From NCBI GenBank assembly GCA_003942085.1, contig DQIQ01000001.1, positions 24,950 through 88,949 of the forward strand: 64,000 nt of DNA, given 5' to 3'. Source of the stretch: Thermoplasmata archaeon (GTDB taxonomy: Archaea; Thermoplasmatota; E2; DHVEG-1). The notes below the pieces were generated by a model. The model did not search any database, was not told the DNA's origin, and was given only the letters and a program-made list of their open reading frames with translations. Below are positions 23,541 to 40,004 of the stretch, piece by piece (the stretch's first letter is position 1; each line of letters opens with the position of its first letter). The position numbers were made by a program, and so were the translations under genes.

Positions 23541-23647
23541 CGACTTAGAAATGATGATTCGTGATTTAAATGAATCTGTACAAAGTGCAAGTGATGGATT
23601 TGAACACGAGAGTATCGGTAAGACCATTAATGATGGTGAGAATTCTT

Positions 23648-23845: not shown

Positions 23846-23847
23846 AA

Positions 23848-24261: not shown

Positions 24262-24434
24262 CTAATATTAATGTGTGTTAGTAATAACTTTTTATTATTT
24301 ATTTCTAACATTATGTTATGTAAATATAACATATACTATTTATATCTTACGCTAAAGAAAGTTGGACAAATTCTTCACAATTAACGAATGCATTATCTTT
24401 TTGTACAACAATGAATGAAAAAATCTAAAAAAAA

Positions 24435-24456
24435 GTGCGGGGGAAGGGATTTGAAC
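24435..24456 (-). repeat. att-like copy (21/22 nt) of the tRNA-Leu 3' end, followed by TTACTAGTA-type motifs.
   Basis: gtgcgggggaagggatttgaac versus the tRNA 3' end gtgcaggggaagggatttgaac. tctaatttactagta follows immediately and ggtttactagtaatctc lies 75 nt further on. Confidence 0.6.
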
Positions 24457-24907
24457 TCTAATTTACTAGTATGCTCCTCATTTTTCTCCTGATACGATAC
24501 CATCATCATTTTTGAGCGGGTTATCAACTCGAAGCTACAAAGGTTTACTAGTAATCTCTCCCTGTTATGCTGATCTAAGTATATTTTTATCAGTATAAAC
24601 ATAATCGTTCCGGTCAACTATCAGCTTGGTTTATGTCATTTATATAAGTGGTCTCATCGATGCTCCTGTCGGGATTACGTGCCAATTCTTCAGAGCCCTC
24701 GGGAGGAAGGAAGTGAAAGACTGGCATAAAACCCCTCTGGAAGAATACTTGCTGGAAGTTCAAAGCTCCCAGATGGTTTGAAAAAATTACGCGAACGTGA
24801 TAGGCAGTCCGTGGCAGTAGAAGGAGACGTTGAGTAAGTCTTCCTCGTCGTAGAAACCTTGCTCGCAAGCCTAATGTCAAGGATGAATCAGTGAGTAAAC
24901 CTGGAGT

Positions 24908-26314
24908 TTAATTTAAATTATTTATTAAAAATTTAAAACCTATCATGAACCATCGAGGGTCCTTATCTCGTAGGAATCGTTTGAGGTATCTTAACCATAA
25001 AATCGGATTGTAAAAAAACCTATTGTATCCTTTGATAGTGTACTTTATGATCTCTTTCGATGTAAAATTTCCCAGTTTTTTTGATGAGTCGGTATAAATG
25101 AAATGCCCATCTTTAGAATAACTTATTTTCCCTTCTTTCTCTGCTTCACACCATAAGTCTGAGCCGCAGACGTAACGAAGAGCTAAAAAACTCGCCATGT
25201 CTAATGGCAATGATGTCGCAAATTTTATTGTTCTTTTAATATGTTTTTCTGTTTCAATCGGAGCACCTAAAATAAACATTCCTGTTGTTAGAAAACCCAT
25301 CTTATGACTTAGTTCAATTGTTTTTACAACATCTGGAATCAAGAGTTTTTTATTGTAGTAATCGAGAACATCTTGGTTCCCTGATTCTATTCCGTAGTTG
25401 ATAATTCTCACCCCGGCTTTCTTCAGTTGAGTATATAACTCTTCATCGCCAGAATCAGCTCTCGCCTCATTTATCCATAAATCTAATTTATATTGCTTTG
25501 TTATGATGTGTTCCATTATTTTCATTATCCTTTTTTTGTCGGCGAGGAGATTGTCATCCGAAAACGCTATGGTTTCATAACCTTGTGATACAATCTCATC
25601 GATTTCGTTTATAACATTTTTTACAGATCTCTTTTGATAATACGGAATGTGCGCCTTCAAACCACAAAAACGACATCGATGCGGGCAGCCTCTCGATGTG
25701 AGTATTGATGTTACTTTACCTTTCCCAAACTTGATATTCATGATGTGCCCATAGGTATATTTTTCTGTAAGATAACGAGCTGGAAAAGGTAATTGGTCCA
25801 AGTCCTCAATTTTGTTTTTTCCTAAATTGTGAACGATTTTGTTGTTTTCTTTATAGCAAACTCCAGGTAGATTTTTTATTGGTTTGTTTAATTTAATTGA
25901 TTCCATTATTGATGCGATGACGGTTTCTCCAGGCCCTCGAACTGCGACATCTGCATTAAATTCTCTTAACGATTCTTCTGTTAAAAGCGATACGTGCGGC
26001 CCGCCTATTATAATTTTAATTTTAGGATTTCTTTCTTTAATTTTTTTAGCAATATCTAATGCAAATTGTTTATCCTGAGGTTGACTATAAACAGTGAGGC
26101 CGACGACATCGTTTTTTCCAGCTATCTCATCGATTCTGTTATCGTTTATCTGTTCAGCAGATCCATCAATGATTTCCACAATATAATTGTTCAATTCAAG
26201 GATTTTTCCCAGATATAATAATCCCAATGGGGGGAAAGATGGCTTAAATTGCATTTTTTTATTTACCGCAATTTCGTAATTACCTTTGGCACAATTGATC
26301 AATGTAATGTTCAT
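24908..26314 (-). CDS. B12-binding-domain radical SAM enzyme (second copy in the window).
   Basis: It has an N-terminal B12-binding domain (IIIGGPHVS) and LTSRGCPHRCRFCG. It lies between two att-like repeats. Confidence 0.75.
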   Translation of the reverse strand: MNITLINCAKGNYEIAVNKKMQFKPSFPPLGLLYLGKILELNNYIVEIIDGSAEQINDNRIDEIAGKNDVVGLTVYSQPQDKQFALDIAKKIKERNPKIKIIIGGPHVSLLTEESLREFNADVAVRGPGETVIASIMESIKLNKPIKNLPGVCYKENNKIVHNLGKNKIEDLDQLPFPARYLTEKYTYGHIMNIKFGKGKVTSILTSRGCPHRCRFCGLKAHIPYYQKRSVKNVINEIDEIVSQGYETIAFSDDNLLADKKRIMKIMEHIITKQYKLDLWINEARADSGDEELYTQLKKAGVRIINYGIESGNQDVLDYYNKKLLIPDVVKTIELSHKMGFLTTGMFILGAPIETEKHIKRTIKFATSLPLDMASFLALRYVCGSDLWCEAEKEGKISYSKDGHFIYTDSSKKLGNFTSKEIIKYTIKGYNRFFYNPILWLRYLKRFLRDKDPRWFMIGFKFLINNLN

Positions 26315-26504
26315 ATTAATTTTTACCTTGGATTAAAAGTATCCTTCACCATCTATATTAATATCATTGATTGAATGAAGAAGACCATTATAATTTATAA
26401 AAATTAGTTATGGAGGAAAGAGAATCATGCTTAGGTAAATGAGATTTTGTGTAAATGCTTGGTTCATAATATTTACGTGTTAGTCCAGGAGATGTTTGAG
26501 GAGT

Positions 26505-26760
26505 TTATATGCATAGCCCTCCTAATGAACAGGTATTTACGGATTCAAATCATTTTTTAGTCCTATGGCATGTTTCTCCTGGAAAAGTTGAAAATAAGTG
26601 CAGGGGAAGGGATTTGAACACTAATTTACTAGTACACTAGTATCTCGCTCCTTAAGGTATTTTGATTTTATTCAATTACTAGTAAATATCCTAATTCCAG
26701 GACTCAACTCTAAGCTTGTTACACTAGTCAGTTACCAGTTGCTTTTCTCCATCTGATGTA
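26505..26760. repeat. Non-coding copy A of a segmentally duplicated block of roughly 550 bp (the partner starts at 28585).
   Basis: About 85% identity to 28585-28813 by eye, spanning the att-like core, the TTACTAGTA motifs and the 3' end of the downstream gene. Confidence 0.6.
26598..26619 (-). repeat. att-like exact 22-nt copy of the tRNA-Leu 3' end.
   Basis: gtgcaggggaagggatttgaac, followed by actaatttactagtacactagta and later caattactagtaaat. Confidence 0.65.
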
Positions 26761-28515
26761 TTATTTGTAACCAATAATAAGAAGTGGATGATACTCACTG
26801 TATTCTTTTGAGTGGTAGCATGAGCATTCTTGGCTCCCACTTGTGTCCACCATCCTCCATCCGTAATTAGGAGCACCGCCAAGGTAAAACAATTGGATGT
26901 CTCCAGTAAGGTTCCAGAAAACCCAAGTATTGAGCGTCGATGGCACGATTGCTAATGAAGATGGTTCTGGGTCATATGATGGTTGGGTATTCCAGGTGAC
27001 TGTTCCTTCATCCCAATCGCTGGTGACTTTATAGGCGTTCACTTGATGGCCACCAGGGTTTCCATCCGAGCTATGAAAATAGTACAGTTGAAGGGAGGCA
27101 TACTGGATGGTCACATTAGATGGAAGAGTGCTTATATTATATTTGATGAGTCCGTCCAATTCCAACCAAGAGATAGAAATGTGAGATCTGATATCAATCG
27201 GATCACTGGTCCCTGCATTACTATTAGGACTTACTTCTGAAATTGTGGCATCATCAGTTGGTTCAAGGACTACGGTATTTTCAGAACTAGTCCTGAATGA
27301 AAACATTTTTTTTGACCAGTACCTTCCATCGGTGACATTCACAAACCACGTATAAGAGGTAAAATAATCAAGGCCACTGATAGGAACAGTGTATCGACCG
27401 TTGCCGACGCCAGTCCCAGCTCCTGATCCGATATCTGGTTGTGTCTCAACCGTCCAATTCATCAGATCCCCCTGATAATCGGTCAAATCAAAACTCACAT
27501 TTGACGTAGATATTGGTACAAACTCAGCGTTTTGGTTTGGTGACGGATTCCTAATTAATGGAAACAACGTCTCTGTAGTAAATGTGCGTGTTCTCCCCAC
27601 CGGCGTCCCCGAAGTATCCCCTTCGTAGATCAGGATCAACCAAGAATATGTGGTGCCGTTCTGCAACGGATGAACAATGGGAATGGTGTAGGTTCCATTT
27701 GGTATCAAAGTAGCGGTTCCACCACCGATGTCCGGACTTGTTGTGACCTTATAACTCATGAGATCACCTTCAATATCGTGGATTTTAAAACTAAGCTCGG
27801 TGAGGGAAAGAGAAACGTTTTGTTCTCCATCTGCAGGTGAAATATCGGAAATATATGGGAATTGGTTATTTTGATTTAGATACCACTTACAGCCAAGATG
27901 ACTAGCAATTTTCTCTATTGATTCAATGATAAGAGCCCCGATAGTTTCGCATAGATAAAGATCCCATCGCCACCCACTTAATAACATATACGCGCCCACA
28001 GCATACAAAGGAATCATAAGTGTGCAAATTATTGGGAAATGCCAACTTGATGCATCCTTACTTTCACAATCGCATCCTGAGTTTGACAACTGCATTATGT
28101 CTTCTTGTAATTTAACGTTCTTTTCTATGACAGCATTTATTTCTTGTTGTAATTCAGGATTAATCAATTGATGTGCCCGGATCATTGATTGAATCCTTGA
28201 TTTACTAGAAAACTTTGAGAGAACCAACCCGATCAAATACATTCGTTTTAGTTGATTCTTTGTTAAAACAGGAATCTCTGATGTTGGGGATATTCCTCTA
28301 CTCATCTGGGATTTGAGAATGATTCTCTGGATCTCTCTGTTATTTGTTATATCCAAGATGGTTTGGAATAAAAGCTCTCTCTGATTGACTGTTTCTTTTT
28401 TGGCTTGTCGATGTGATGTTTGAACCGTCTGAAATCCAACAACATTGCTCAACGAAGCAAGAATGAGAACAACAACGGCAACAATACTGACTCCAATCAG
28501 AGGATACTTCTTCAT
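26761..28515 (-). CDS. Surface protein with an N-terminal anchored CDCE module, two Ig-like repeats and a C-terminal LPSN...VTWNTxP (DNRLRE/CBM-like) module.
   Basis: N-terminal anchor MKKYPLIGVSIVAVVVLILASL, CDCE, a hydrophobic segment, a repeated GDLMxxxVxTxPDIGxG...Y(T/S)W motif, many NxS/T sequons, and a C-terminal STLPSNVTIQYASLQLYY...VTSDWDEGTVTWNTQPSY...HPLLIIGYK. Confidence 0.6.
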   Translation of the reverse strand: MKKYPLIGVSIVAVVVLILASLSNVVGFQTVQTSHRQAKKETVNQRELLFQTILDITNNREIQRIILKSQMSRGISPTSEIPVLTKNQLKRMYLIGLVLSKFSSKSRIQSMIRAHQLINPELQQEINAVIEKNVKLQEDIMQLSNSGCDCESKDASSWHFPIICTLMIPLYAVGAYMLLSGWRWDLYLCETIGALIIESIEKIASHLGCKWYLNQNNQFPYISDISPADGEQNVSLSLTELSFKIHDIEGDLMSYKVTTSPDIGGGTATLIPNGTYTIPIVHPLQNGTTYSWLILIYEGDTSGTPVGRTRTFTTETLFPLIRNPSPNQNAEFVPISTSNVSFDLTDYQGDLMNWTVETQPDIGSGAGTGVGNGRYTVPISGLDYFTSYTWFVNVTDGRYWSKKMFSFRTSSENTVVLEPTDDATISEVSPNSNAGTSDPIDIRSHISISWLELDGLIKYNISTLPSNVTIQYASLQLYYFHSSDGNPGGHQVNAYKVTSDWDEGTVTWNTQPSYDPEPSSLAIVPSTLNTWVFWNLTGDIQLFYLGGAPNYGWRMVDTSGSQECSCYHSKEYSEYHPLLIIGYK

Positions 28516-28584
28516 CCTTTTCTTCCTATATGAAAAATAAAGACCTCTTGTCTATTTAAAATCTTCCTTCCAAGTAATTTACCT

Positions 28585-28813
28585 GTATTTAGGAGTTCAA
28601 ATCATTTTTTAGTCTCATGGCGATTTTCTTCTGGGAAAAGAGAAAAAAAGTGCAGGGGAAGGGATTTGAACACTAATTTACTAGTATACTAGTATCTCTC
28701 TCCTCAGGGAGATTTTGATTTTATTAAATTACTAGTAAGTATTCTAATTTCAGCGCCCGACTGTTGGCTTGTTACGTTAGTCAGTTAGCTGTTGTTTTTC
28801 TTAATCTGAAGTA
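28585..28813. repeat. Non-coding copy B of the segmental duplication.
   Basis: See 26505-26760. The similarity continues into 28814-29119. Confidence 0.6.
28650..28671 (-). repeat. att-like exact 22-nt copy of the tRNA-Leu 3' end.
   Basis: gtgcaggggaagggatttgaac, followed by actaatttactagtatactagta and aaattactagtaag. Confidence 0.65.
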
Positions 28814-29119
28814 TTATTTATAACCGATAATAAGAAGAGGATGAAACTCACTATAGTCTTTTGAGTAGAAGCACGAGCATTTCTGAGTTCCACTCGTGTC
28901 CATCATCCTCCATCCGTAATTGGGAGCGCTACTATTAACAAACAATTGGACGTCTCCAGTAAGGTTCCAAAAAACCCAGCTATTAATCGTCGCTGGCATG
29001 ATAGCAAATGAAGATGGTTCTGTGACATAGGACGGTCGGGTATTCCACGTGACGTTTTTTTCATTCCAATCACTCGTAATTCGATATGCGTTCACCTGAT
29101 GTCCGCTGGGGGTTCCCAT
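28814..29119 (-). pseudogene. Detached C-terminal LPSN/VTWNTxP-module fragment, probably the frameshifted 3' part of the beta-helix gene upstream.
   Basis: The 101-aa ORF GHQVNAYRITSDWNEKNVTWNTRPSY...HPLLIIGYK is about 75% identical to the C-terminus of the 26761-28515 product. It has no signal peptide and sits one frame off, 8 nt after the stop of 29128-30144. Confidence 0.45.
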
Positions 29120-29127
29120 TCAAGTTT

Positions 29128-30144
29128 TCATTGTAAAACATTTTCATATACGTTTATTGATATATAATAAGGTTCTTGAACTGGTGTTAGGTCGAATTCA
29201 AAGGAAAGGAGAGGTAGTGGAATCCAAAGGAAAGCTAAAAAATAAGAAAATAGAAAAATGACTATATCACCTCGGATGGGTTTCGGAGTAGTTTTATTCC
29301 AATCACTCCAATAATTGCTCTCCCAGTGTTGTTTATATTTTATGAGACTAGGGGATCCAAGGAGACTTTGGTACTTCAGAAAGGAGGCATGAACCTTATT
29401 ATCGATAAAATTATTTAAACGTACTGTGACTCCTCGACAATTTGCACAATATACCCCTTCTTCTAGGCTCTCTCTGAATTCATTATGATGAATATCAATC
29501 GATCCTTCGTCAACCACATCTATTCCAACGCTATTTTTTATGAAGACGTTATGATGGATTGAACAATTATTACTATCGATAACACGACACCCGCCGCCAT
29601 TGCTGATGAAAATATTGTTAAAAAAGGAGGTGTTGAAGCAATCGTACATCGTCACCCCGATCGAATTATTCACAATAATCATATCATGGACGATAATATC
29701 ATCGATCCGGCTGATTCCAGTTGGTTCGAATATATGAACACCTGCTCCAGGATACGTGCCAGTACCGCAATTTTGTACTGTAAATCCACTGATATGCACT
29801 CCATCTGTTAAAACACAAACTACATCCCACTTACGGGTCCCATTGATGATCGTCGTGTTCTTATCTTCACCAATGAGGCTAATTGATTTAAAAATTTTTA
29901 CACATTCAGAGCTATATGGCGTCTGATTATAGATTCCATGATATACATAAACTGTATCACCATCGCTTGCGTTATCGACAGCATCCTGTATAGTGCTGTA
30001 ATTTCCAGGTCCATTCCCGCCAACATACAACCAATTCCCTCGTGATGTCGGTAAAGGTTTCTCAGCATCCTGGGCAGTCGTTGGAATGATACAGGTTCCG
30101 ACGAACAAGAGAATGATGCTAACCGCCAAACATTTCCTTTTCAT
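29128..30144 (-). CDS. Secreted right-handed parallel beta-helix (pectate-lyase-fold) protein. The C-terminus is probably disrupted.
   Basis: A signal peptide is followed by PbH1-like repeats (NNSIGVTMYDCFNTSFFNNIFISNGGGCRVIDSNNCSIHHNVFIKNSVGIDV). The last 40 residues or so (IVIFLFSYFLAFLWIPLPLL...) look like out-of-frame read-through. Confidence 0.55.
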   Translation of the reverse strand: MKRKCLAVSIILLFVGTCIIPTTAQDAEKPLPTSRGNWLYVGGNGPGNYSTIQDAVDNASDGDTVYVYHGIYNQTPYSSECVKIFKSISLIGEDKNTTIINGTRKWDVVCVLTDGVHISGFTVQNCGTGTYPGAGVHIFEPTGISRIDDIIVHDMIIVNNSIGVTMYDCFNTSFFNNIFISNGGGCRVIDSNNCSIHHNVFIKNSVGIDVVDEGSIDIHHNEFRESLEEGVYCANCRGVTVRLNNFIDNKVHASFLKYQSLLGSPSLIKYKQHWESNYWSDWNKTTPKPIRGDIVIFLFSYFLAFLWIPLPLLSFEFDLTPVQEPYYISINVYENVLQ

Positions 30145-30192
30145 TGATTTACCTCTTTATTCTATGTCTAGAATGGGTTAGGCTACAATTAA

Positions 30193-30816
30193 TTACCACA
30201 AACAATTAAGTGTCGTTTCTATATAAGAAATTATGGCAATTAAGAAATAAATACCTGCAAGGGCTAACCAAATAGCAAATATTGTTAACGGCCACAGTAG
30301 TGCACATATAACTGGGTAATGCCAGACTGTTGTATTATTGTTTTCACAATCACATTGTAAGCTCGATAAATCTGTCATTTCGCCCTTGAGTAAAACATCT
30401 TTTTCAATAACAACGGATATTTCTTTCTGCATCCTTTGATTATTCACTTGATATTGCTCAACCATCGGATGTATTCTTGTTTTACTGATAATCTTTGAAA
30501 GCATCAAACCAACAAGATACATATGGTTGAGTTGGTTCTTCGTTAAAGCAGGAGTGTTGAATATAGAGAATTTTACGTCTGGATTGAACAATCCTTCTCT
30601 GTTTATCTGGGATTTGAGTACAATTTCCGGGATATCTTTATTATTCGCAATATCAACGATGGTTTGGAATAACAACTCTTTCTGGTTGATCTCTTCATTT
30701 ATGATTTTCTGATTTGATGATTGAAACGTCTGATAACCAACAACATTGGTCAACGAACCAAGCACAAGAAGAATCACAGCACAGATGCTTATTCCAATCA
30801 AAGGTTTTGTATTCAT
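30193..30816 (-). CDS. Stand-alone paralog of the N-terminal anchored CDCE module.
   Basis: 207 aa, about 45% identical to residues 1-200 of the 26761-28515 product (LIGISICAVILLVLGSLTNVVGYQT...ELLFQTI...TKNQL..MYL.GL.LSK...CDCE..WHYP), ending in a hydrophobic tail. Confidence 0.5.
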   Translation of the reverse strand: MNTKPLIGISICAVILLVLGSLTNVVGYQTFQSSNQKIINEEINQKELLFQTIVDIANNKDIPEIVLKSQINREGLFNPDVKFSIFNTPALTKNQLNHMYLVGLMLSKIISKTRIHPMVEQYQVNNQRMQKEISVVIEKDVLLKGEMTDLSSLQCDCENNNTTVWHYPVICALLWPLTIFAIWLALAGIYFLIAIISYIETTLNCLW

Positions 30817-30947
30817 TACTTTCCGCCCTTATAAATACTTTATAACAATAATCCCCTATAAAAACGTTTATTTCATTATTGATTAAGTCTCTGCAAACAT
30901 TATAGTATCTGGAGGCAAGAATTAACAGAGTTGTTTTTTTTAATTTG

Positions 30948-32849
30948 TTAGAAGAACTTCCATACTTCGATTCCAACCCATGCCCATCTGCCATCATTTG
31001 AATATGCTCCAACCTCAATTGAATGTCCTCCAAATTCTTTTTCTGACCATGTCCATTCGTATGGTTCTTCAGTATCAGTAAATTGTGGATTGGTATCGAT
31101 AAAAAATATCACTTCTCGTATACCTACATCTTCCTGTATCGCTTCAGCTCTGATGGAAATCTTTCCGATAATCACTGGGTGTAGTATTAAAGGTAAAAGT
31201 TTGATGTTGAATAAATACAAGCCTATTTCTGGGCGTAAAATTCGCACCGTTGGCAGGGAAGTTCCTACTGTCACATTTGCAGTATCGCTACTGGCATTCC
31301 CCTCACCATCAATCAACGTAAGCGTTGCGATGTATTCACCTGGTCTGGTGTAGGTATGCGTCGGGTGCTCTAAATCTGAGGTGTTCCCGTCACCGAACTC
31401 CCATTGGAACGTATACGGGAGTGCTCCGCCAAATGTTGTGCTCATAAAAGAGATTGATTCCAAAGCATATCCACTGTAGGGTCCACCTGCATCTACAGAT
31501 AAAGACGCGTCGCCGAACGCATGGAGATACCCCCATGTAAGTGTACCATCATGATTCCTCCATGAAGATCCAACATAGAGATTACCGTCTCCGTCAATAC
31601 ACGGTGATGAAAGCACTGCAACGTTGGAAATCAGTTTCTTCCATCTGATTGTCCCGTCTGGGTTCACCGCCACAAGGCTGACCCCTGCACTCACATAAAT
31701 CGTGCCATCCGCGGAGACCGCTGGTGCCGTCCCATAGATATCTCCACCGACATCAACAACCCATTTCAAGGTCCCATTTGGATAGAATGCTCTAAGCTGT
31801 TCAGTCCCGACATACAACGTCCCATCAGACGCAACCGCTGCTAATGCAGCCGCAACCTCTTCACCAGTGCTCGCCTGCCAAATCAACGTCCCATTGGGGT
31901 TGAGGGCGTAGAGATACCCGTCAAACGAGGGAATATAAATCGTGCCATCAGGGGCAATAGAAGGATGCCCTTTGATATCCCCGCCGGTAAGATACCGCCA
32001 GCGGAGCGTGCCATTAGGGTTGAGAGCATAAAGATAATCATCAGCGGAACCGACGTAAATGGTACCGTCCTCGCCGATAGCAGGGTCTGAGGTTACGTAG
32101 TATCCTGTCTCATAATGCCATTTTTCGACCCCGTTAGGATTTATCGCATAGAGACAACCACCCGAGTGACCCAGATAAATCGTCCCGTCATCACCTATCG
32201 CCGGGGAAGAATGAAACTCTCCACTACGGTACAAATCCCATATTAATGAACCGTTCTGGTCAAGAGCGGAGAGACGGCCATACCAGTCTCCAACGTAGAT
32301 GGTCCCATCTTCTGCAATAGCTGGCGTAGACCATATTACTCCAGGTATTTTGTAATACCATTTCTGCGTCCCATTAGGATATATTGCATAGAGGTTATGA
32401 TCTGCCCCCATACTCCCAAAATAGATGATACCGTTCTTGTCGACAATTGCGCCTGATTCAATTGTTCCTGCATCTTTCAATGTTTTATACCGCCATTTCT
32501 CCGTTCCCGGGTTGTCCGCGGTGCTGATTGGACTTTGACAGGTATGATATGTATCATGGCAGCTCATCGGCCATGAGGAGTTCTGCAGACCACCGGTTTC
32601 CCTGCCACGATCATCTCCTCCAACGGATTCATGGATCAATGTTTCAGCTTGATATGCTGGTTCATCCGCTGTTGAGGTACTATCACAGTTGATGCTCCAT
32701 GAGTTTTCATATGCGCGATAATCAGCTTTATTGAATGTCTGTTGTATTGGATCATCCAGATGAGTTGAAAGCATCGAAACAGATGCTGGGACAAGAAGGA
32801 CGAATAATAAACTGGTTGCTAGAAGGGTTCTCCAAATAGTATTGTTCAT
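30948..32849 (-). CDS. Secreted PQQ-like beta-propeller protein with C-terminal PKD and Ig-like domains.
   Basis: A signal peptide is followed by roughly eight DGT(I/L)Y(V/I)G...LYA(L/I)NPNGT..W repeats, then a PKD domain (DAGGPYSGY...YTFQWEFGDGNTS...HTYTRPGEY). Confidence 0.65.
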   Translation of the reverse strand: MNNTIWRTLLATSLLFVLLVPASVSMLSTHLDDPIQQTFNKADYRAYENSWSINCDSTSTADEPAYQAETLIHESVGGDDRGRETGGLQNSSWPMSCHDTYHTCQSPISTADNPGTEKWRYKTLKDAGTIESGAIVDKNGIIYFGSMGADHNLYAIYPNGTQKWYYKIPGVIWSTPAIAEDGTIYVGDWYGRLSALDQNGSLIWDLYRSGEFHSSPAIGDDGTIYLGHSGGCLYAINPNGVEKWHYETGYYVTSDPAIGEDGTIYVGSADDYLYALNPNGTLRWRYLTGGDIKGHPSIAPDGTIYIPSFDGYLYALNPNGTLIWQASTGEEVAAALAAVASDGTLYVGTEQLRAFYPNGTLKWVVDVGGDIYGTAPAVSADGTIYVSAGVSLVAVNPDGTIRWKKLISNVAVLSSPCIDGDGNLYVGSSWRNHDGTLTWGYLHAFGDASLSVDAGGPYSGYALESISFMSTTFGGALPYTFQWEFGDGNTSDLEHPTHTYTRPGEYIATLTLIDGEGNASSDTANVTVGTSLPTVRILRPEIGLYLFNIKLLPLILHPVIIGKISIRAEAIQEDVGIREVIFFIDTNPQFTDTEEPYEWTWSEKEFGGHSIEVGAYSNDGRWAWVGIEVWKFF

Positions 32850-33036
32850 AGGTTTTTTCTTCCGTTCAATACATATATCGGATATTCTATATATAGATTT
32901 CCATTTGATAAACTCAATTTTTTATTGATACTGTTCTCTTTTTCGCATAAAATAGCTCATTAAAAGTTTGAAAAAAAAACAAACTATTTAAATTAATTTA
33001 AATTACCATTTCATATTAATTGGGGAGTGAAAAAAT

Positions 33037-36000
33037 ATGCGAGGAAAAAAAATTGTAGCGTTTTTAGTATGCGCGCTAATGATTGCGAGCGGGATAATGC
33101 TGATGCCGAAGAACACGGATGTCCGAGCAGATGCATATCAACATCCAAGCGGAGAAAATGAAATAGGCCTCAATACCACTTATGTCTGGGAAATGGTAAA
33201 GCGGTTTTGCAATGTGACACGTGATACTGATTGGTCGCATGAGAATAACATCCCTAAAGGGCGATCATGGGCGACCGCAGGGGAGAACTACACCATTGAT
33301 AATATTTTAAAATATCAATGGGAGAATTTCACTAATCCTGCATTTGAATTTCAAAAATTACTCATCGGCCCCATCAATGGTAGTACTAGATTATATTCAA
33401 ACAAGATTGTCATACAAAATTTTGGTCTGACGACTGAAAATCCTTCAGTAACCATACCAATCAGTGAAATGTTTCCCATCGGTATCGGTGTCCGTCCAGA
33501 TAATGATTTAAACAAAACATTTGGGTTTAACAATTCAAGGATAGAGAAAGTAGAACTCTTTGCACGTGATTTTTTAGGGGGATCATATTTTCCTGATCAC
33601 CTGAATGTACCCACTCAGTTCTTAAACGATTATAAATTAGTTTATGGTTCTCCTATCTATCTTGACGAGAATGACGAAGTACCAGAGAACCAGGATGGCT
33701 TTGTGTTCATCATGAATGAAACAGAAGACTGCGAGGATAAACTAGATAATATCACTGATGCCTCGGCATGTATCTTAATTAAAGGCAATTCTTTCTACAA
33801 TTACGAACAGGCGGATGAGAAACAGTTTTCGATCTTTCGCGTGGATGAAACCAATGATAATCTTTCAGAAGTGGTATCGGAAATAGAAAATGGATCAGTG
33901 TTCTTTGTAGATAATATTTATGATTCAGATATGTTGGTATTCACTAATTTAAGTAATGATACATGTATCCCGGAAGGTGATGATTTTGTTGGGGTTGTAC
34001 AAAGAACAGCCCCCTCAGATCCACAATCGTTTGAGCCTAGACCCTTTCTTGAGTATGTTTTTGGAAATGTCAATGGATATTACTATGATTATCTACGATT
34101 AGTCATTTTTAACAATCTTTGGTATATATATCATAACAGAAGAGATGAAGATTATTCGAAAGGTTGCGTGGGTTTAATTCTATCTGATTATTCTAATACT
34201 ACTCATTTTATGACACATACAGAGAAGGGTTGGGGTTGGTTCTCAGGAGCATTCAGCGACAGATGGTGGTTGCCAATGTTTTCAGTAAACAAATCCGTCG
34301 GGAAATTTTTACTGGATAATATAAATACTGTGAGCGTCAATGGTTCCATCGAACAGGAATATAGATGCCAAACAACTACAGAACCTGGTGTGATAAGCAA
34401 TAATTTTATCGGGTATCTAGATGTTACACAGAATCGTTCTGATCCGTATGTCATTCTTTCAAACAGAATTGATGGCTGGTGGGGACAAACACCAGGAGAC
34501 AGCGGAGTAGGTGGCGCGATTCTTCTCGGTATTGCCAAATATTTTAATGATTATAATATCAAACCCAATAGTAACTTGAGGTTTCTCTTTACCACCGGGG
34601 AGGAATACGGCATGCGTGGCGCCCAGCATTATAACGACAGCCATGCAAATGATACTATCACACGATGGATCGGGTTTGATCAACTGGGATTTTATTATAC
34701 GACATCCGATGATACAATAAATTTAACAGTAAATGTGTTAGATAATACGTCAAAGGCCATCATTAAAACGATTGCAAATGATACACATTACGTTGATCGA
34801 ACAGGTTACGGTATCGGGGTTGATATCCCTGATGATTATGGCTCTGAAGATAAAGTTTTTAGTACCCGGAAAGATCCATTTTGTAATACGACTTGTTTTG
34901 GGAGAGACAATTCATCCAGGTGGGATGACTACCATCGTTCGGGTGAAAACTATTCCGAGGGTGATAGTCTGAATCATACCGATCGAAATGATGTCAACGT
35001 AACGTTCGAGTTAGCATGGAACGTGATAAAATATTGCACGGTAAATCCAGATTGTTGGTTCAACGAACCAGCCACCTACACCATAGAGGATTCCCCATAC
35101 GATACCGATACCTATAATGATTCTATTAACGTAACAGTATCAGTAAAATCAGTGCTTCCAAATGATAAAGTCAGAGTGAATGCGACGTTGAAAAGCTGGC
35201 CTTCAAACGACACAGTCTTCTGGAAAAACTATGATTTCAACGTCACTTCAGAGACAACTCAAAAGACATTCACCGTTACCCTGCCGCCCAACTCAACTGG
35301 GGCAACAAGCGGAAATTATACCCTGTCACTCGCACTGTTAAACTCGACAGGCAGGATCAACGACATCGCTCTCAATACCAGAGAATATAATGACACCGGC
35401 ACCCAGACAGGTCATGTATATCTCTGTCCACGGGGAAATTCTCTACCATATAAACCCAATGACATCACCGGTCCGTTTACGGTGCAAATATTACACCCGG
35501 CGAACTTTACTACGTCTGCGACAGATACGAATCAGGATCAATTGCAGTATCAATGGGATTGGAATGTACTCCTTGGAGATTTGTTTGAAACCACCGAGGT
35601 TGGTCCATATGATTCCGATGATAACTGCACTACGGAGCATACATACTACGGATGGGGACCACGAGTCATACAGGTGAGAGCACGGGATGATTACGGGTAC
35701 CTGTTTGATGGCACCCCCCTAGGATGGAATCGATATGGCAATTGGAGCGATGATACTTGGTCAGAACCATTCTTGATATATGTAAGTTTTTTCACCGATT
35801 TTAGCATGTCATGCACCTCTCTTTCATCCGCTGTAAACGCTCAATCTACCACAGAGTTGCCATCCATTCAACAAATAAATTCGACGTATGACGCTCTCAT
35901 ATTTGGTGGCAATGAGCCTCATTCCTATCAATGGATGTTCAATCATGAGCGATACGCGGAGAAACAAAAAACCGTGTATTATCAGTTCGAGGAAACAGGC

Positions 36001-39000
36001 GATTATACAGTCTCTTTAAATGTCATTGATAATGACGGGTATTCTGAAGAATTTTCTGTCAATGTCTCCGTGGTGAATTTAAGCGCAAGCTTCAACCTCA
36101 GCGTCCCGTCACCATATGCGAACCCGGATGAGGAGATTGATTTCACGGACACGTCAGCGGCAGCCAGTGGATACCAGATGACAAATTGGACATGGGATTT
36201 CGATGACGGTACCTGCTCCTACAATCGGAATGCCACTCATGTGTTCATGGAATCCGGAACGTATAACGTCTCTCTCACGGTCACAGACAACCAAACACAC
36301 ACGGACATCACATCCCAGTGTATCCTTGTGACCATCGATGAGACCCCGCCGCAGATCCAGCAGGTCGCAGATGAGATTTCCGTTGATGACCGCTGGCTGG
36401 TTGTCTCCCTTGCAGGGTATTTCGTTGACTCGGAAAGCGGTATTAAAAACGCCTCTGTGAACATCACGTATCCAGATGGGTCTCATGGGAATTTCACTAT
36501 GATGCATGTGTTCAACACGATTTACGGCTATGTCTTTAACGACACCGAGGCTCCTGGTCAGTACAATTATACGGTCTGGGTGACCGACTATGAAAATAAT
36601 ACGAACAGCGCTACCGGATATTCTTTCACAATCCCGACTCCGCCGGTCCTTTTATATGCGACAACAACTCCTGCCAATAGCACCGTTTCCAATGACCCAT
36701 GGACAGATGTCAACGTGACCATCCTTGATCCTCTGAACACCTCCGCGTTCATCGACTGGGACCACAGCCTCAAGGGTTACTGGCCGATGGATTCCTATAA
36801 TGACACCGGTGTGTATGATAACTCCACCTATGACAATTTCGGGACATTCCAAAGTGGATTGAACAACAGAAATATTATACCAGGGAAATACGGGAAAGGA
36901 CTGGAGTTCGATGGAATCGATCATTACGTTGATGTCGGCACCAGCAATAGTTTGGATCTTGGCAGCGGTGATTTCACGTTCATGACCTGGGAGAAAAGCC
37001 ATGTATCCTCTTACTCGAAGAAAGCGATGATTCTCACCAACAGTCCGGCGGGCGAGAGCTGGAAAGGCTATGGTTTCGGTGTTGCCAATCATGCGTATCT
37101 TTTTGTCTCTCAATCATCAGGAAATAATGTGACGGTGCAGGGGACTACTGATGTGACCGACAACACCTGGCATCATATCGCCTATGTGAACCATGAAGGA
37201 GACTATTCAATATATGTCGATGGCGCGTTTGACGCTAATGGGATGTTGACTTCAGAAAAAAATATCACGAACACACAGCACACCTACCTCGCCTATGATG
37301 GACATACATCGAACTGGTGTTTCTTCGATGGTATGCTTGATGAGCCGCAGCTCTACAACCGAGTCCTCAGCAGAGAGGAGATCAACGCCTCCTATAACAA
37401 TGGGCTGAACCATTTGTATCATAATTTCACTGGACTTCCTGATGGCACGTATAGTTATTATGCACATGCGATTGACACTTCGGGAAATCAGAGTACAACA
37501 GAGACACGACAAGTAACCATTGATACCACGCCTCCAACGATTATAAATGTCAACGCTTCACCTCATACCGTCGGATTCGGGTACAATATCACAATCTCTG
37601 CGGATGTAATCGACAATTATAGCGGTGTTGATCTTGTTAACATCCAGATTACTTATCCTGGTGGTATAGGTAATTCGAGCAATCACACAATGACCCATGT
37701 CACTAATGATACGTATCAGTATGTGTTCAATGATACGTGGCTGACCGGGCAGTACAACCTTACCATCTGGGCTGTGGATAACTCCAATAATAGTAACAGC
37801 AGCGGCGGGCATCATTTCCATGTCTCCGTAACGGCGACCATCAGCATCGCCACCCTGAAGAACAGCTACAGCGGCAGCCAATACATCAACATCACCGACC
37901 CTCCGAACCCACCTGAGGACTATACACTGGTTGGTCGGGGACTCACCTGGAATACCTATTACAATGTATCCTCTGGTGAAAACATTCTCGAAACATACCA
38001 AGGACCAGTGAATTACCAAGAAGACAACAACACCTGGAACCCAATCAACGTCTCCCTAAAACAGTTAACAATTGATAATCCTGCTTACAACTATGGGTAT
38101 CAGACAGGGAATGATCGTGGGTTATTCGGTGTCTACTTCAAACCCAATATCCAGAGCGACTGGCCCGTCGCATTCACCTACAACAGATCGAACAACCCCA
38201 CTACCAACGTCATCAGAAGTAAGCTCGTCGGTGTAGGATACATTGATCCACAGAGCAACTGGGCGTATCAGTATCTGCAGAACGTGCAGAGCAGCCAAGG
38301 ACAAACAAATGACAACTCGATAACCTACTCAAATGTCTTTACTGGCACCGATGTCACCTGGAGCTACGGCAACACCGAACTCAAAGAAGAGATCACACTC
38401 AGCAATGCGACGAAGACTGTATTGCAGAACCACCCACCATCACAGTACGGCCTTAACAACCAAAGCTCGTATCTCGTGTTCATCACTAAATTGGATCATC
38501 AGAACCTCGGCATGTATAATGCCTCAGGAATGCTCACTGGAAACGTAACGATCTCCAACGCAGGGGTTGATTTCAAGGATGCACTAGGACATTTCAAATG
38601 CGCCCTGCCACTTGGCGAGGCGTACGAACTGAATAACGAATCCATGAGACAGAAACTGACCTACCGCATCGTACACCTGAACGGCAACACCTACTTGCTT
38701 TCCGGGTTGAAGGTCTCAGATTTGAACGCGATGACGTTCCCAGTGGTGATAGACCCAACTTTAACTGTGTATTCAACCTCCAGCGACGGTTATATCTCTA
38801 ACTCTGGCACCAACTACAATACAGTACGAACCGCATCGTCCGGTACCGTCAACAGTTCCGGGACATACATCACAATCGGACAGAAGAAGGGTCCTGGTCA
38901 GCCTGCTACGTATTACATCTACCGAGGATTCGTGTTCTTCAACACCTCCGCATTACCATCGAACGCGTACCTCGATACAGCAACACTCGCCCTGTACAAG

Positions 39001-39645
39001 AAGGATGATTACTCAACCACGGATTTCGGTATCACCATTCAGAACGGACAGCCGACCTACCCGCATAATCCCTTACAAACAACCGATTACAATAAAAACT
39101 ATTATTCAGGGAACGGAGAAGCGTTGAATACATCAATGTTTACAAGCGGATACAACGCTATTAAAATGAACAACCTCAGCTGGATCAATACGACAGGAAC
39201 CACCAAACTATGTCTGCGGAGCAGCAGGGACATCAGTGGGACGACGCCGACCGGGAACGAATATGTAAACGTGTATTCAAACGAATTTCTAGGTAGTTGT
39301 CCACCAAAATTGGTCATCGTGTATCGGAACCAATCGAAGATCAAGAACACTGGATCGACGAACATCAACGGATACCTTCTCATACAAGTCCAGTTCTACA
39401 ACACCTCACAAAGCAAATGGATAGTAGACAACGATACCATCAACGAGACCTCACCACGGACCATCAACAGCGGCAATCAACTCGCACTCGACACCATCTT
39501 CAACGGGCATGTCCGAGCATCAGATCTGACCCATGGAACAGGAACCTATCGAGTCTACACCGCATTCAGAGATCCAGACGGAAATATCCTGAAAACAAAC
39601 ACCGGGGTTGAGTTGAAAGCCTGGTGGCAGTTCAGCAAAACGTAA
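33037..39645 (+). CDS. Giant (2202 aa) multidomain surface protein with a PA/M28-peptidase-like N-terminal region, two or more PKD domains, a LamG (concanavalin-like) domain, several Ig-like domains and an LPSN/DNRLRE-like module.
   Basis: The signal peptide is followed by GQTPGDSGVGGAILLGIAKYF...FLFTTGEEYGMRGAQHY (M28 metal-site pattern). PKD domains include HSYQWMF...YQFEETGDYTVSLNVIDNDG and WTWDFDDGT...HVFMESGTYNVSLTVTDN. The LamG region is GYWPMDSYND...FDG.DHYVDVG....DFTFMTW...WHHIAYV...YVDG...FDGMLDEPQLYNRVLS. The LPSN module reads FFNTSALPSNAYLDTATLALY. NxS/T sequons occur throughout. It is the only long plus-strand ORF in the island. Confidence 0.8.
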   Translation: MRGKKIVAFLVCALMIASGIMLMPKNTDVRADAYQHPSGENEIGLNTTYVWEMVKRFCNVTRDTDWSHENNIPKGRSWATAGENYTIDNILKYQWENFTNPAFEFQKLLIGPINGSTRLYSNKIVIQNFGLTTENPSVTIPISEMFPIGIGVRPDNDLNKTFGFNNSRIEKVELFARDFLGGSYFPDHLNVPTQFLNDYKLVYGSPIYLDENDEVPENQDGFVFIMNETEDCEDKLDNITDASACILIKGNSFYNYEQADEKQFSIFRVDETNDNLSEVVSEIENGSVFFVDNIYDSDMLVFTNLSNDTCIPEGDDFVGVVQRTAPSDPQSFEPRPFLEYVFGNVNGYYYDYLRLVIFNNLWYIYHNRRDEDYSKGCVGLILSDYSNTTHFMTHTEKGWGWFSGAFSDRWWLPMFSVNKSVGKFLLDNINTVSVNGSIEQEYRCQTTTEPGVISNNFIGYLDVTQNRSDPYVILSNRIDGWWGQTPGDSGVGGAILLGIAKYFNDYNIKPNSNLRFLFTTGEEYGMRGAQHYNDSHANDTITRWIGFDQLGFYYTTSDDTINLTVNVLDNTSKAIIKTIANDTHYVDRTGYGIGVDIPDDYGSEDKVFSTRKDPFCNTTCFGRDNSSRWDDYHRSGENYSEGDSLNHTDRNDVNVTFELAWNVIKYCTVNPDCWFNEPATYTIEDSPYDTDTYNDSINVTVSVKSVLPNDKVRVNATLKSWPSNDTVFWKNYDFNVTSETTQKTFTVTLPPNSTGATSGNYTLSLALLNSTGRINDIALNTREYNDTGTQTGHVYLCPRGNSLPYKPNDITGPFTVQILHPANFTTSATDTNQDQLQYQWDWNVLLGDLFETTEVGPYDSDDNCTTEHTYYGWGPRVIQVRARDDYGYLFDGTPLGWNRYGNWSDDTWSEPFLIYVSFFTDFSMSCTSLSSAVNAQSTTELPSIQQINSTYDALIFGGNEPHSYQWMFNHERYAEKQKTVYYQFEETGDYTVSLNVIDNDGYSEEFSVNVSVVNLSASFNLSVPSPYANPDEEIDFTDTSAAASGYQMTNWTWDFDDGTCSYNRNATHVFMESGTYNVSLTVTDNQTHTDITSQCILVTIDETPPQIQQVADEISVDDRWLVVSLAGYFVDSESGIKNASVNITYPDGSHGNFTMMHVFNTIYGYVFNDTEAPGQYNYTVWVTDYENNTNSATGYSFTIPTPPVLLYATTTPANSTVSNDPWTDVNVTILDPLNTSAFIDWDHSLKGYWPMDSYNDTGVYDNSTYDNFGTFQSGLNNRNIIPGKYGKGLEFDGIDHYVDVGTSNSLDLGSGDFTFMTWEKSHVSSYSKKAMILTNSPAGESWKGYGFGVANHAYLFVSQSSGNNVTVQGTTDVTDNTWHHIAYVNHEGDYSIYVDGAFDANGMLTSEKNITNTQHTYLAYDGHTSNWCFFDGMLDEPQLYNRVLSREEINASYNNGLNHLYHNFTGLPDGTYSYYAHAIDTSGNQSTTETRQVTIDTTPPTIINVNASPHTVGFGYNITISADVIDNYSGVDLVNIQITYPGGIGNSSNHTMTHVTNDTYQYVFNDTWLTGQYNLTIWAVDNSNNSNSSGGHHFHVSVTATISIATLKNSYSGSQYINITDPPNPPEDYTLVGRGLTWNTYYNVSSGENILETYQGPVNYQEDNNTWNPINVSLKQLTIDNPAYNYGYQTGNDRGLFGVYFKPNIQSDWPVAFTYNRSNNPTTNVIRSKLVGVGYIDPQSNWAYQYLQNVQSSQGQTNDNSITYSNVFTGTDVTWSYGNTELKEEITLSNATKTVLQNHPPSQYGLNNQSSYLVFITKLDHQNLGMYNASGMLTGNVTISNAGVDFKDALGHFKCALPLGEAYELNNESMRQKLTYRIVHLNGNTYLLSGLKVSDLNAMTFPVVIDPTLTVYSTSSDGYISNSGTNYNTVRTASSGTVNSSGTYITIGQKKGPGQPATYYIYRGFVFFNTSALPSNAYLDTATLALYKKDDYSTTDFGITIQNGQPTYPHNPLQTTDYNKNYYSGNGEALNTSMFTSGYNAIKMNNLSWINTTGTTKLCLRSSRDISGTTPTGNEYVNVYSNEFLGSCPPKLVIVYRNQSKIKNTGSTNINGYLLIQVQFYNTSQSKWIVDNDTINETSPRTINSGNQLALDTIFNGHVRASDLTHGTGTYRVYTAFRDPDGNILKTNTGVELKAWWQFSKT

Positions 39646-39712
39646 CGAAGTAATTCTCAGCGATTATAAACAACGGAAGTCAGGCATATAAACCCCGCCT
39701 GATTTTCCTCAA

Positions 39713-39720
39713 TTTTTTTT
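39713..39720 (+). terminator. Oligo-T (T8) archaeal-type terminator after the giant gene.
   Basis: cctcaatttttttttag lies about 70 nt after the stop. Confidence 0.3.
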
Positions 39721-39767
39721 AGTTATTGATTAATAGACTTTATTGTGCAAAACAAACTAGTAAATTA

Positions 39768-39853
39768 GTGCAGGGGAAGGGATTTGAACCCCCGAACCTC
39801 TGCAGGAACAGATCTTGAGTCTGTCGCCGTAGACCAGGCTTGGCTACCCCTGC
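39768..39853 (-). tRNA. tRNA-Leu, anticodon CAA, with a long variable arm and no encoded CCA.
   Basis: The reverse strand reads GCAGGGGTAGCCAAGCCTGGTCTACGGCGACAGACTCAAGATCTGTTCCTGCAGAGGTTCGGGGGTTCAAATCCCTTCCCCTGCAC. The 7-bp acceptor stem is GCAGGGG/CCCCTGC, the anticodon loop CTCAAGA, the T-loop TTCAAAT and the variable arm 14 nt. It was folded by hand. Confidence 0.8.
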
Positions 39854-39874
39854 ACAAGAAACACAAGAACAGTT

Positions 39875-39900
39875 CATTCATAATAAATATTTAGGTTGAA
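39875..39900 (-). promoter_or_regulatory. Candidate TATA box / BRE for the tRNA-Leu gene.
   Basis: The reverse-strand aaatatttattatg sits about 25-35 nt upstream of the tRNA 5' end. Confidence 0.25.
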
Positions 39901-40004
39901 TCACGCTTGATGACAAGACAACATATCGCAGGACTCCAAACATTTTTTTTCCCGGAATGTTTTATATGGTAGACATGATTTCAGTATAGCAGAAAGGTGG
40001 CAGA

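Follow-up and report, generated by a model that had tools for sequence, protein, structure and literature searches.

Tandem re-use of attachment (att) sites in tRNA genes, integrase-less remnants flanked by such sites and partial tRNAs inside genomic islands are already known. In archaeal integrated elements of the SSV and pTN3 type, reportedly described by She et al. in 2001-2004, direct repeats of a tRNA 3′ fragment bracket foreign DNA located 3′ of an intact tRNA, and loss of integrase function is said to fix the cargo in place (“gene capture”). Here, we describe a locus in a 64-kb stretch of DNA from a Thermoplasmata archaeon (64,000 nt of contig DQIQ01000001.1, referred to as the window), in which positions 23586/24435-39853 probably represent one instance of a hypervariable, integrase-less cassette array built on the 3′ end of tRNA-Leu(CAA) in uncultured Thermoplasmatota. 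We document its junction anatomy, the family of cassettes to which it belongs and the polymorphism of such arrays between relatives, with no recombinase found in cis.

Structurally, the locus is an array of the kind formed by cis-mobilizable elements (CIMEs), and it lacks the defining features of integrons, casposons and SSV-type elements. In the Streptococcus ICESt1/ICESt3 family, CIMEs occupy the 3′ end of a target gene one after another, separated by repeated att cores and devoid of integration genes, and any mobility relies on the integrase of another element (PMC5704250); the units described here are likewise att-flanked, arranged in tandem at the target gene and free of integration and transfer genes. 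In contrast, CIMEs are decayed multi-gene remnants of integrative and conjugative or integrative and mobilizable elements (ICEs and IMEs), usually one or two per site (PMC5704250), whereas arrays of the window lineage have up to five cores per contig, mostly single genes, short conserved arms and no backbone remnants, and reside in an archaeal host. Integron arrays, including archaeal ones (PMC9668308), share with the locus mostly single-gene, diverse cassettes that include a toxin and contain no recombinase, a repeated recombination site whose inverted symmetry is imperfect, and variation between relatives; unlike integrons, the arrays here have no adjoining IntI that we could find and no attI, and start at a tRNA gene. 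Tycheposon islands of Prochlorococcus (bioRxiv 10.1101/2020.12.28.424599) are also tRNA-proximal, with newcomers displacing older units outward, scattered partial tRNAs and niche-adaptive cargo. They differ in that they supply a tyrosine or large serine recombinase themselves, often together with genes for replication, and in that their integrase-less parts are described as remnants; here no recombinase was found in any unit, and the arms form a conserved family. Family-2 casposons of Methanosarcina (PMC4779613) likewise target a tRNA-Leu 3′ end and form tandem arrays with a shared direct repeat, solo ends and inverted terminal motifs, but they encode Cas1 and a family-B DNA polymerase (PolB), with terminal inverted repeats (TIRs) of 31-59 bp or more and 14-bp target site duplications (TSDs) that reach past the tRNA end (PMC4779613), all of which the locus lacks. 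From SSV- and pTN3-type elements the locus differs in having no detectable Int(N)/Int(C) halves, repeats of 22 nt compared to a median of 45 nt in Crenarchaeota, much smaller units and long arrays. What is unusual here is the integron-like regularity, the mostly single-gene units, the short conserved arms, the lack of a recombinase found in cis, the occupancy in every relative examined and the lineage-wide spread.

A probable cassette array anchored on tRNA-Leu(CAA)

ARAGORN identified tRNA-Leu(CAA) as the sole tRNA of the window (39768-39853, minus strand). The final 22 nt of this gene (GTGCAGGGGAAGGGATTTGAAC) begin at G53, which precedes the T-loop, and take in the T-loop, the 3′ strands of the T-stem and acceptor stem, the discriminator and one further base. 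Exact repeats of this 22-mer were found at 28650 and 26598, and a copy with a single mismatch at 24435, on one strand throughout. No match was obtained in 100 dinucleotide-preserving shuffles (chance expectation 0), and these copies, hereafter cores, are spaced by 2141, 2030 and 11096 nt, which confirms the repeats, their shared tRNA orientation and the segments of about 2.1, 2.0 and 11.1 kb reported in the initial annotation. Chance or a generic intergenic repeat is ruled out as the source of the 22-mer, with 0 matches expected and the repeat being the tRNA’s own 3′ end; the earlier reservation that it might be a widespread intergenic repeat unrelated to the tRNA was right insofar as it forms part of a widespread module, but that module is tRNA-derived and tRNA-anchored. 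As in tRNA-integrated elements in general, the direct repeats match the 3′ part of the tRNA and share its orientation, and one end is formed by an intact tRNA; no integrase gene inside the element beside an att site was found among the scanned ORFs (open reading frames) of the window and its relatives. The GC content is 35-39% across 24-31 kb compared to 42-47% in the flanks. A degenerate fifth core indicates that the array probably reaches one decayed unit further, to 23586. The anchor and core copies are as follows, with relatives denoted by L numbers:

39768-39853, minus strand: intact tRNA-Leu(CAA), array anchor and attL side (ARAGORN, pattern match; the same tRNA is found in relatives L005, L007, L012, L014 and L039)
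39768-39789, minus strand: core copy 1, the final 22 nt of tRNA-Leu (pattern match)
28650-28671, minus strand: core copy 2, exact (pattern match)
26598-26619, minus strand: core copy 3, exact (pattern match)
24435-24456, minus strand: core copy 4, one mismatch, T to C (pattern match)
23586-23605, minus strand: degenerate fifth core GTTCAAATCCATCACTTGCA with three substitutions and one deletion (0.03 such matches expected per shuffled window); it falls within the 5′ extension of a DUF2284 ORF
23606-24434: possible older decayed unit associated with the fifth core, comprising a DUF2178 membrane protein (23848-24261) and a 65-aa helix-turn-helix (HTH) protein (23648-23845) identified by Pfam

Read in tRNA orientation, each non-tRNA core is preceded by the right arm of one unit and followed by the left arm of the next. 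Cassettes 2 and 3 each contain one gene, and Pfam agrees with the earlier description of the cargo as a B12-radical SAM (rSAM) enzyme and surface proteins, including a 2202-aa M28/PKD/LamG protein. The contents from the tRNA outward are:

28672-39767, minus strand: segment 1, 11.1 kb, composite, no internal cores (Pfam, paralogy)
39756-39767, plus strand: arm motif ACTAGTAAATTA, inverted, adjoining the tRNA 3′ end and located 3′ of the plus-strand M28 gene; perfect 13-nt inverted repeat with 28673-28685
33037-39645, plus strand: M28/PKD/LamG protein, 2202 aa (Pfam)
30948-32849, minus strand: PQQ-propeller/PKD protein, 633 aa (Pfam; a stand-alone core-to-core cassette in L023)
30193-30816, minus strand: CBM96-family N-terminal fragment, 207 aa (Pfam, paralogy)
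29128-30144, minus strand: NosD beta-helix protein, 338 aa (Pfam)
28814-29119, minus strand: CBM96 C-terminal fragment, 101 aa (Pfam, paralogy)
28672-28740, minus strand: right arm of segment 1, with TACTAGTA at 28679, 28687 and 28730 and ACTAGTAAATTAG-T adjoining the core
26620-28649, minus strand: cassette 2, one gene
28516-28649, minus strand: left arm and leader of cassette 2, with a T-run, a CCAGAAGAAA box, inverted GATTTGAAC..TAAATAC and a TTTTAAATAG TATA-like box 5′ of the CBM96 start (putative promoter)
26761-28515, minus strand: cargo of cassette 2, a membrane-anchored CBM96/disaggregatase-like protein, 584 aa (Pfam)
26620-26690, minus strand: right arm of cassette 2, with TACTAGTA at 26627 and 26677 and ACTAGTAAATTAG-T adjoining the core
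24457-26597, minus strand: cassette 3, one gene and a right arm of ~450 nt that is non-coding
26315-26597, minus strand: left arm and leader of cassette 3, containing CCAGGAGAAA and GATTTGAAT..GTAAATAC; its first ~75 nt match the left arm of cassette 2 at 84% identity
24908-26314, minus strand: cargo of cassette 3, a B12-binding radical SAM enzyme, 468 aa (Pfam)
24457-24907, minus strand: long non-coding right arm of cassette 3, with TACTAGTA at 24464 and 24546, a CAGGAGAAAAA box and ACTAGTAAATTAG-A adjoining the core

Anatomy of the junctions

Alignment of the four copies revealed that the three non-tRNA cores have common sequence on both sides which is not found at the tRNA copy. All three are preceded (in tRNA orientation) by ACTAGTAAATTAG plus one variable base, a 13-mer that occurs only once more in the window, inverted at 39756-39768 and touching the tRNA 3′ end. 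The palindrome TACTAGTA was found seven times in the window compared to 0.26 expected, each time at most ~100 nt from a non-tRNA core. In all fetched DNA, 130 of 138 sites were located within 250 nt of a core, though only 9% of bases are, and most of the sites outside this distance lie next to decayed cores; this clustering identifies the motif as part of the site and not a general operator. On the 3′ side of cores 28650 and 26598, a T-run is followed by a CCAG(G/A)AGAAA box, an inverted GATTTGAA(C/T)..TAAATAC motif and a TTTTAAATAG box before the next start codon, and this stretch is homologous to the sequence after the intact tRNA in L001 and L005. Every non-tRNA copy of the 22 nt is therefore an attR-type junction, composed of a right arm with TACTAGTAAA palindromes ending in ACTAGTAAATTAG, the core, and a T-run with leader, in which arm sequence takes the place of the tRNA body exactly from the T-loop. 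As an arm, the tRNA tail and unrelated DNA meet at each copy, each is a recombinant junction. The proposal that the repeats are att-type scars of integration into tRNA-Leu is supported by this attR anatomy, by homology that ends at the cores and by differing segments in relatives with the same flanks.

The same junctions could also be viewed as a regulatory intergenic module (tRNA tail, TACTAGTA operators and promoter) that spread by tandem duplication and homologous recombination within a surface-protein regulon, an explanation we consider very improbable. It would account for the location of cores 26598 and 28650 inside a ~440-bp paralogous block (82-84% identity) that includes the 3′ ends of CBM96-family genes, for the resemblance of the left arm to the native tRNA downstream flank in L001 and L005, for the many cargo genes that are paralogous surface proteins (clusters c0 and c1) and for mosaic breakpoints that do not fall at cores. 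However, simple duplication of a downstream region cannot produce an arm that replaces the tRNA body at the T-loop, the same arms accompany unrelated cargo (rSAM, NikR, AbiEii, S8, M14 and an operon resembling prokaryotic Argonaute (pAgo) systems), several arm types meet at one boundary, the same cassette is found in unrelated flanks, and no TACTAGTA is present at other promoters in the 64 kb.

The right arm extends over ~155 nt that are 88-90% identical among cassettes carrying rSAM, FG-GAP, S8, NosD, esterase and other genes, and contains three direct TACTAGTAAA palindromes and a CAGGAGAAAAA box. For cassette 3, the last ~155 nt are matched at this level by over 20 other right arms, whose cassettes carry unrelated cargo, and the distal 150-300 nt are retained at 75-85% identity in a subset. 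Left arms come in several forms. In type A1, the gene is co-oriented with the tRNA and the left arm retains inverted GATTTGAAC..TAAATACTAGTA; in type A2, the gene is opposed to the tRNA and its 3′ end retains TTTACTAGTAAA..GTTCAAATC, the inverted motif of the left arm; type B is short and has no inverted motif. No consistent pattern was observed when right-arm types were compared with the left-arm inverted motif within junctions. Right arm, core and type-A left arm can be folded into a long imperfect hairpin (z down to -4.9), and the core’s TTCCCCTG has imperfect inverted copies in the CAGGAGAAA boxes located at about -45 and +18. In contrast to the R″ (RYYYAAC) and R′ (GTTRRRY) motifs of integron attC sites, the arms of this hairpin are GATTTGAAC and GTTCAAATC (GTTCAAA does not fit GTTRRRY) and the invariant 22-nt tRNA segment is placed in the loop. 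Compensatory changes were seen in 0 of 24 predicted junction pairs, leaving an RNA reading unsupported, and Rfam (24300-29000, up to E=1) returned no match except two chance snoRNA matches within the rSAM gene; a non-coding RNA or ribozyme in the conserved arm was ruled out by the lack of an Rfam match and of covariation. The multi-site, asymmetric layout instead recalls the arms of an attP, in which the repeated motifs may serve as protein binding sites.

Inverted motifs at both ends of some units raise the possibility of non-autonomous transposon-like elements (e.g., casposon derivatives) moved in trans, for which the 22-mer would be a TSD and ACTAGTAAATTAG a terminal inverted repeat. The 11.1-kb segment has this appearance, since a 22-nt direct repeat (DR22) and the 13-nt inverted repeat (IR13) are arranged around it as DR22-IR13...IR13-n-DR22. 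Type-A left arms hold an inverted copy of the right-end motif plus GTTCAAATC, cargo occurs in both orientations, and family-2 casposons at tRNA-Leu in Methanosarcina offer a precedent with tandem arrays, a shared TSD and solo TIRs (PMC4779613). Against this, 47-60 nt separate the core from the inverted motif in most cassettes and type-B arms have no motif, the right arm keeps a fixed orientation relative to the tRNA in all arrays, the three palindromes extend over 150 nt of one arm only, and the duplicated segment stops exactly at the tRNA 3′ end with the gene restored, as with integrase att sites. No Cas1, PolB or transposase was found in the window ORFs or array proteins scanned. We therefore regard a transposon-like origin as improbable, and a casposon proper is ruled out: neither the Cas1-solo casposase nor a family-B DNA polymerase is present among these proteins, the 13-nt inverted repeat is confined to the 11.1-kb segment, and the direct repeat, 22 nt long, stops where the tRNA does, a geometry that does not fit casposon TIRs and TSDs of 14-15 bp.

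Site-specific recombination at the tRNA end, the explanation we prefer, is also in line with the behavior of the core itself. Other arm types, including ACTGGTAAACGTGG, CCGGTAAACTGG and ACATGTATTTTGG, meet the core at the identical boundary (at least five other types), which points to independent events repeated at a single position. Cores are nearly invariant where the adjoining arm sequence is 82-84% identical. The few core polymorphisms sort by side: position 6 is C in 13 of 39 T1 junctions (element arms only) and in 0 of 11 tRNAs, and T at position 22 accompanies left arms of the AAxTT kind (9 of 9). Such sorting agrees with strand exchange within the core; for position 6, selection acting on the tRNA is a possible alternative explanation.

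A cassette family in sediment Thermoplasmatota

Homologues of the phosphofructokinase (PFK) encoded next to the array (80-94% identity) are labelled Candidatus Thermoplasmatota. On their contigs tRNA-Leu(CAA) stays by PFK, usually with an SNF transporter between them, and the same architecture is found with other contents. The right-arm-plus-core pattern was detected in two GTDB species genomes and 40 metagenome contigs, and in none of the viral contigs; most array loci are short contigs, with 2-5 cores each. After removal of near-duplicates, 45 non-redundant inter-core segments were obtained, with a median length of 1.5 kb (range 0.2-11.1 kb). A single ORF is present in 26 of the 45 segments and none in seven, and the ORFs are directed with the tRNA (35) or against it (29). 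The single-ORF share fits an integron, whereas integron cassettes are promoterless and co-oriented and the units here have their own TATA-like leader and both gene orientations.

Cargo proteins are mostly secreted or surface proteins and peptidases. They include FG-GAP, PKD, LamG, SBBP/fn3, NosD and CBM96 proteins at the surface; S8, M14 and M28 peptidases and alpha/beta hydrolases; glucose/sorbosone dehydrogenase, methyl- and sulfotransferases, flavodoxin and cupredoxin; and a CitMHS transporter, NikR and an AbiEii toxin. The CBM96 cargo of cassette 2 (cluster c1) recurs as a cassette in L001, L010, L024, L026, L030 and L039. In L017, an operon on the plus strand (6168-11379) encodes an HTH protein, a PD-(D/E)XK nuclease, an 804-aa Piwi-domain protein (pAgo-like, weak Pfam match) and two unknown ORFs directly 5′ of a right arm and core at 12073, which suggests that defence genes are also carried by the cassette system.

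Each of L001, L002, L007/L009, L012, L020 and L068/L069 has other contents at tRNA-Leu, as illustrated by the following layouts:

L001: tRNA, NosD with two other genes and CBM96, core, CBM96, core
L002: tRNA, 169-aa protein and NosD, core
L020: tRNA, 780-aa FG-GAP protein, core
L068/L069 (PFK identity 80%): tRNA, NosD and 295-aa protein, core, with a different arm
L039: tRNA, CBM96, core, UbiA
L014: tRNA, FG-GAP, core, NosD, core, S8, core, NosD, core, UbiA

The initial annotation had taken the three repeat copies as successive or tandem integrations. Serial insertion is supported by these comparisons; the units are not three independent elements but members of a family of mostly single-gene cassettes, and the 11.1-kb segment is composite.

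Several observations concern degenerate units and unusual anchors. ORF-less units of 295-371 nt were found between successive cores (L021 1811-2510 / L028 6267-6964; L015 4550-4968), some of which hold more decayed arm-plus-core copies (e.g., ACTGGCAAATTCGTGTTACCTTCCCGA), which indicates nested fossils of older junctions. A decayed right arm and core (ACTAGTAAATTAGTGTTCATATCCCTCTCCTACATC) lies by a conserved 175-aa ORF at another chromosomal locus with no tRNA near in L027, L035 (a 207-kb contig), L037 and L043. An array on an apparent intron-containing tRNA-Leu(TAA) with the same 3′ end, cut by the contig end, was observed in L024 (4184-4277, minus strand), and in L011 and L047 the array begins straight after a protein gene without a tRNA. 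Split or intron-containing tRNAs were considered as alternative anchors and set aside, as the truncated tRNA-Leu(TAA) of L024 was the only case and the other array starts have no tRNA.

Breakpoints, array polymorphism and assembly breaks

Comparison of related arrays places the recombination breakpoints at the cores, where cassette homology begins and ends. From core to core, the CBM96 cassette of L039 is 92.9% identical to that of L026 with unrelated flanks, and 89.5% identical to that of L010. Partners of one cassette differ upstream right up to GTTCAAATCC and downstream right after CTGCA(C/T). L039 and L014 share 95.7% identity over 1575 nt of the distal flank (core, tatttcattttttta... and the UbiA gene), but hold one and four cassettes, respectively, which are unrelated and in both cases start at tRNA-Leu(CAA). 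The comparison with related genomes suggested earlier revealed differing contents within the same flanks. No empty tRNA site was identified in at least 12 relatives, nor among the contexts of PFK homologues, in which contigs usually stop at the tRNA. This lack of empty sites fits a persistent array better than an element that comes and goes.

The array is also a systematic assembly breakpoint. Contigs of 59 kb (L064), 83 kb (L005) and 85 kb (L066) stop at or within ~1.3 kb of tRNA-Leu(CAA), as do all ten listed contigs (L048-L057) of the 24 that encode one PFK protein. L050 stops inside the 22-nt core and L064 stops 6 nt past the tRNA, while single-cassette contigs from other samples end within cores and L060 runs exactly from core to core, which is explained by a repeat-induced assembly break.

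Among contigs encoding the identical PFK, two alleles were also observed, which part immediately past the tRNA-Leu promoter (..cctaaatatttatt). The first runs into the tRNA; the second continues for >600 nt into unrelated sequence that contains no tRNA and matches nothing else fetched. The alleles were compared between L048, L049, L053, L054 and L055 (first 200-750 nt) on one side and L050, L051 and L057 on the other.

No recombinase found in cis

The initial observation that the region has no integrase is upheld by Pfam analysis of its ORFs and intergenic frames. Recombinase domains were absent from all ORFs of the 15-kb region, and no Pfam match of any kind was obtained in six frames of 24457-24907 or in four of six frames (three minus, one plus) of 26315-26760, which are two of the three longest intergenic stretches of the region. 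SSV-type Int(N)/Int(C) halves were accordingly found neither beside core 24435 (all frames) nor beside core 26598 (four frames), so that the split int at two att sites that characterizes SSV-type integration was not detected by Pfam in the arm frames. The cassette right arm has stop codons in relatives. Other larger ORFs across the 64-kb window, about 40 scanned in all, yielded no recombinase, and direct scans of ~60 cargo and flanking proteins of relatives revealed no recombinase, Cas1, PolB or transposase. Candidates from a regular-expression search for the tyrosine-recombinase box II were false positives only.

An autonomous relative with the same arms was not found in viral, plasmid or phage collections, and plasmids and phages gave no arm matches. 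One virus contig shares the core only: L058 (IMGVR_UViG_3300031587_000020), a tailed-virus-like contig with a terminase-like 481-aa ORF, ends at 6756-6776 with a different arm and the same 22-nt core. Since a virus shares the attachment core, recombinases that use the tRNA-Leu site exist in the environment.

The shared viral core is in line with a history of gene capture or CIME-type decay, in which the units would be remnants of integrase-bearing viruses, plasmids or integrative elements at tRNA-Leu whose integration and replication modules were deleted, so that the locus would be a fossil record. Tandem tRNA-att re-use and integrase-less remnants have precedents in CIMEs (PMC5704250), tycheposon islands (bioRxiv 10.1101/2020.12.28.424599) and archaeal arrays (PMC6563490), and the decayed cores, the composite 11.1-kb segment and the unchanged arrangement of the window in five contigs from other metagenomes agree with such a history. 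Decay does not readily explain why 0 of the 45 segments contain a recognisable fragment of an integrase, replication or virion gene, or how independent deletions would leave 26 single-ORF segments tightly bounded by the same short arms whatever their cargo. ORF-less units of 200-400 nt, and cores that are nearly invariant beside arm sequence at 82-84% identity, also speak against it. On balance, we regard decay alone as an unlikely explanation, if one that deserves serious consideration.

Proposed mechanism

Our preferred account, which we hold with moderate confidence, is that the locus is a tRNA-anchored array generated by site-specific recombination with a recombinase acting in trans. The partners in this recombination would be the 3′ segment of the tRNA, from T-loop to discriminator, and its identical counterpart on an incoming circular cassette. 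Such a cassette would consist of a left arm (the T-run ending the upstream unit, a CCAGGAGAAA box, inverted GATTTGAAC..TAAATACTAGTA and a TATA-like box), cargo of usually one gene in either orientation, and a right arm that measures 35-150 nt or more and contains at most three TACTAGTAAA palindromes, of which the last makes ACTAGTAAATTAG beside the core. Serial insertion at the tRNA copy would shift older cassettes outward, leaving the newest nearest the tRNA, and homologous recombination between conserved arms, deletions and decay would then reshuffle the array. Tyrosine integrases that cross over in the T-loop region are said (reportedly by Williams in 2002) typically to need identity from the T-loop to the tRNA end in order to restore the gene. 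The enzyme is most likely a tyrosine recombinase, with strand exchange within the core, and its gene probably lies at another genomic site or on a helper element; as the units themselves encode no recombinase, the enzyme must work in trans or have worked in the past. The palindromes and boxes could provide binding sites for the recombinase or an accessory protein. Whether cassettes still move as units today is a close call, and we lean slightly towards thinking that they do not.

Several observations weigh against this account. We infer both the mechanism and any current activity, as no recombinase, circular junction or empty site was found in the assembled contigs. For the 99 cluster representatives scanned with Pfam and PHROGs, the flank survey covers the 25 commonest families listed and is not exhaustive. 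Since the genome and metagenome scans demanded the ACTAGTAAATTAG arm, the apparent dominance of this arm type is partly a matter of ascertainment. Left arms are not uniform (long types A1 and A2, short type B and others). The tRNA-proximal junction of the window is atypical in that the inverted 13-mer directly touches the tRNA, which is most simply explained as an inverted-gene (A2-type) arm minus about 60 nt. The 11.1-kb segment is composite without internal cores, and a search for core remnants between its genes at 30817-30947 and 32850-33036 found none. Some mosaic breakpoints lie near gene starts and not at cores: the last cassettes of L011 and L014 are 97.8% identical, with homology that stops near the gene start, which indicates that homologous recombination acts too. 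Finally, the window array is static in its strain, being ~100% identical (99.96-100%) across the cores in five contigs from other metagenomes. Proteins identical to the 584-aa and rSAM proteins were found elsewhere in the same arrangement only, in other samples, so recent mobility could not be supported via identical proteins.

A more far-reaching and rather doubtful extension is that the lineage runs an integron-like gene-capture platform, in which a chromosomal or helper recombinase would insert and excise promoter-bearing single-gene cassettes at the stretch of tRNA-Leu genes between the T-loop and the 3′ end. On this reading, TACTAGTAAA palindromes, CAGGAGAAA boxes and the 22-nt tRNA core might together form a composite site, and the array might be the main generator of variation in the secreted and surface proteome, plus defence and toxin genes.

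If cassettes were still exchanged, the system would amount to an archaeal equivalent of integrons with a tRNA gene as its base, and to a defined hot spot at which Thermoplasmatota of sediments trade peptidases, adhesin-like surface proteins, transporters and defence genes. Differences between strains in the extracellular protein-degrading repertoire of this abundant, uncultured group would then be accounted for. Even if the integrations are fossil, the locus is an unusually long and orderly record of captures. Because long contigs end at tRNA-Leu, binning and pangenome work on these archaea loses precisely those genes that vary most. Given a compact att site with conserved arms, the recombinase also becomes a findable target, and the site might be exploited as a landing pad in archaeal genetics.

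Further features of the locus

An SNF-family transporter gene lies between tRNA-Leu and PFK in most relatives, the cases without it being the window (39854-40004), L007/L009, L020 and L039; for the window interval, the comparison was made with L001, L002 and L005. Within segment 1, a CBM96-family gene is seemingly broken at 28814-30816 on the minus strand, as both fragments are paralogous to the intact 584-aa gene and a complete NosD gene lies between them.

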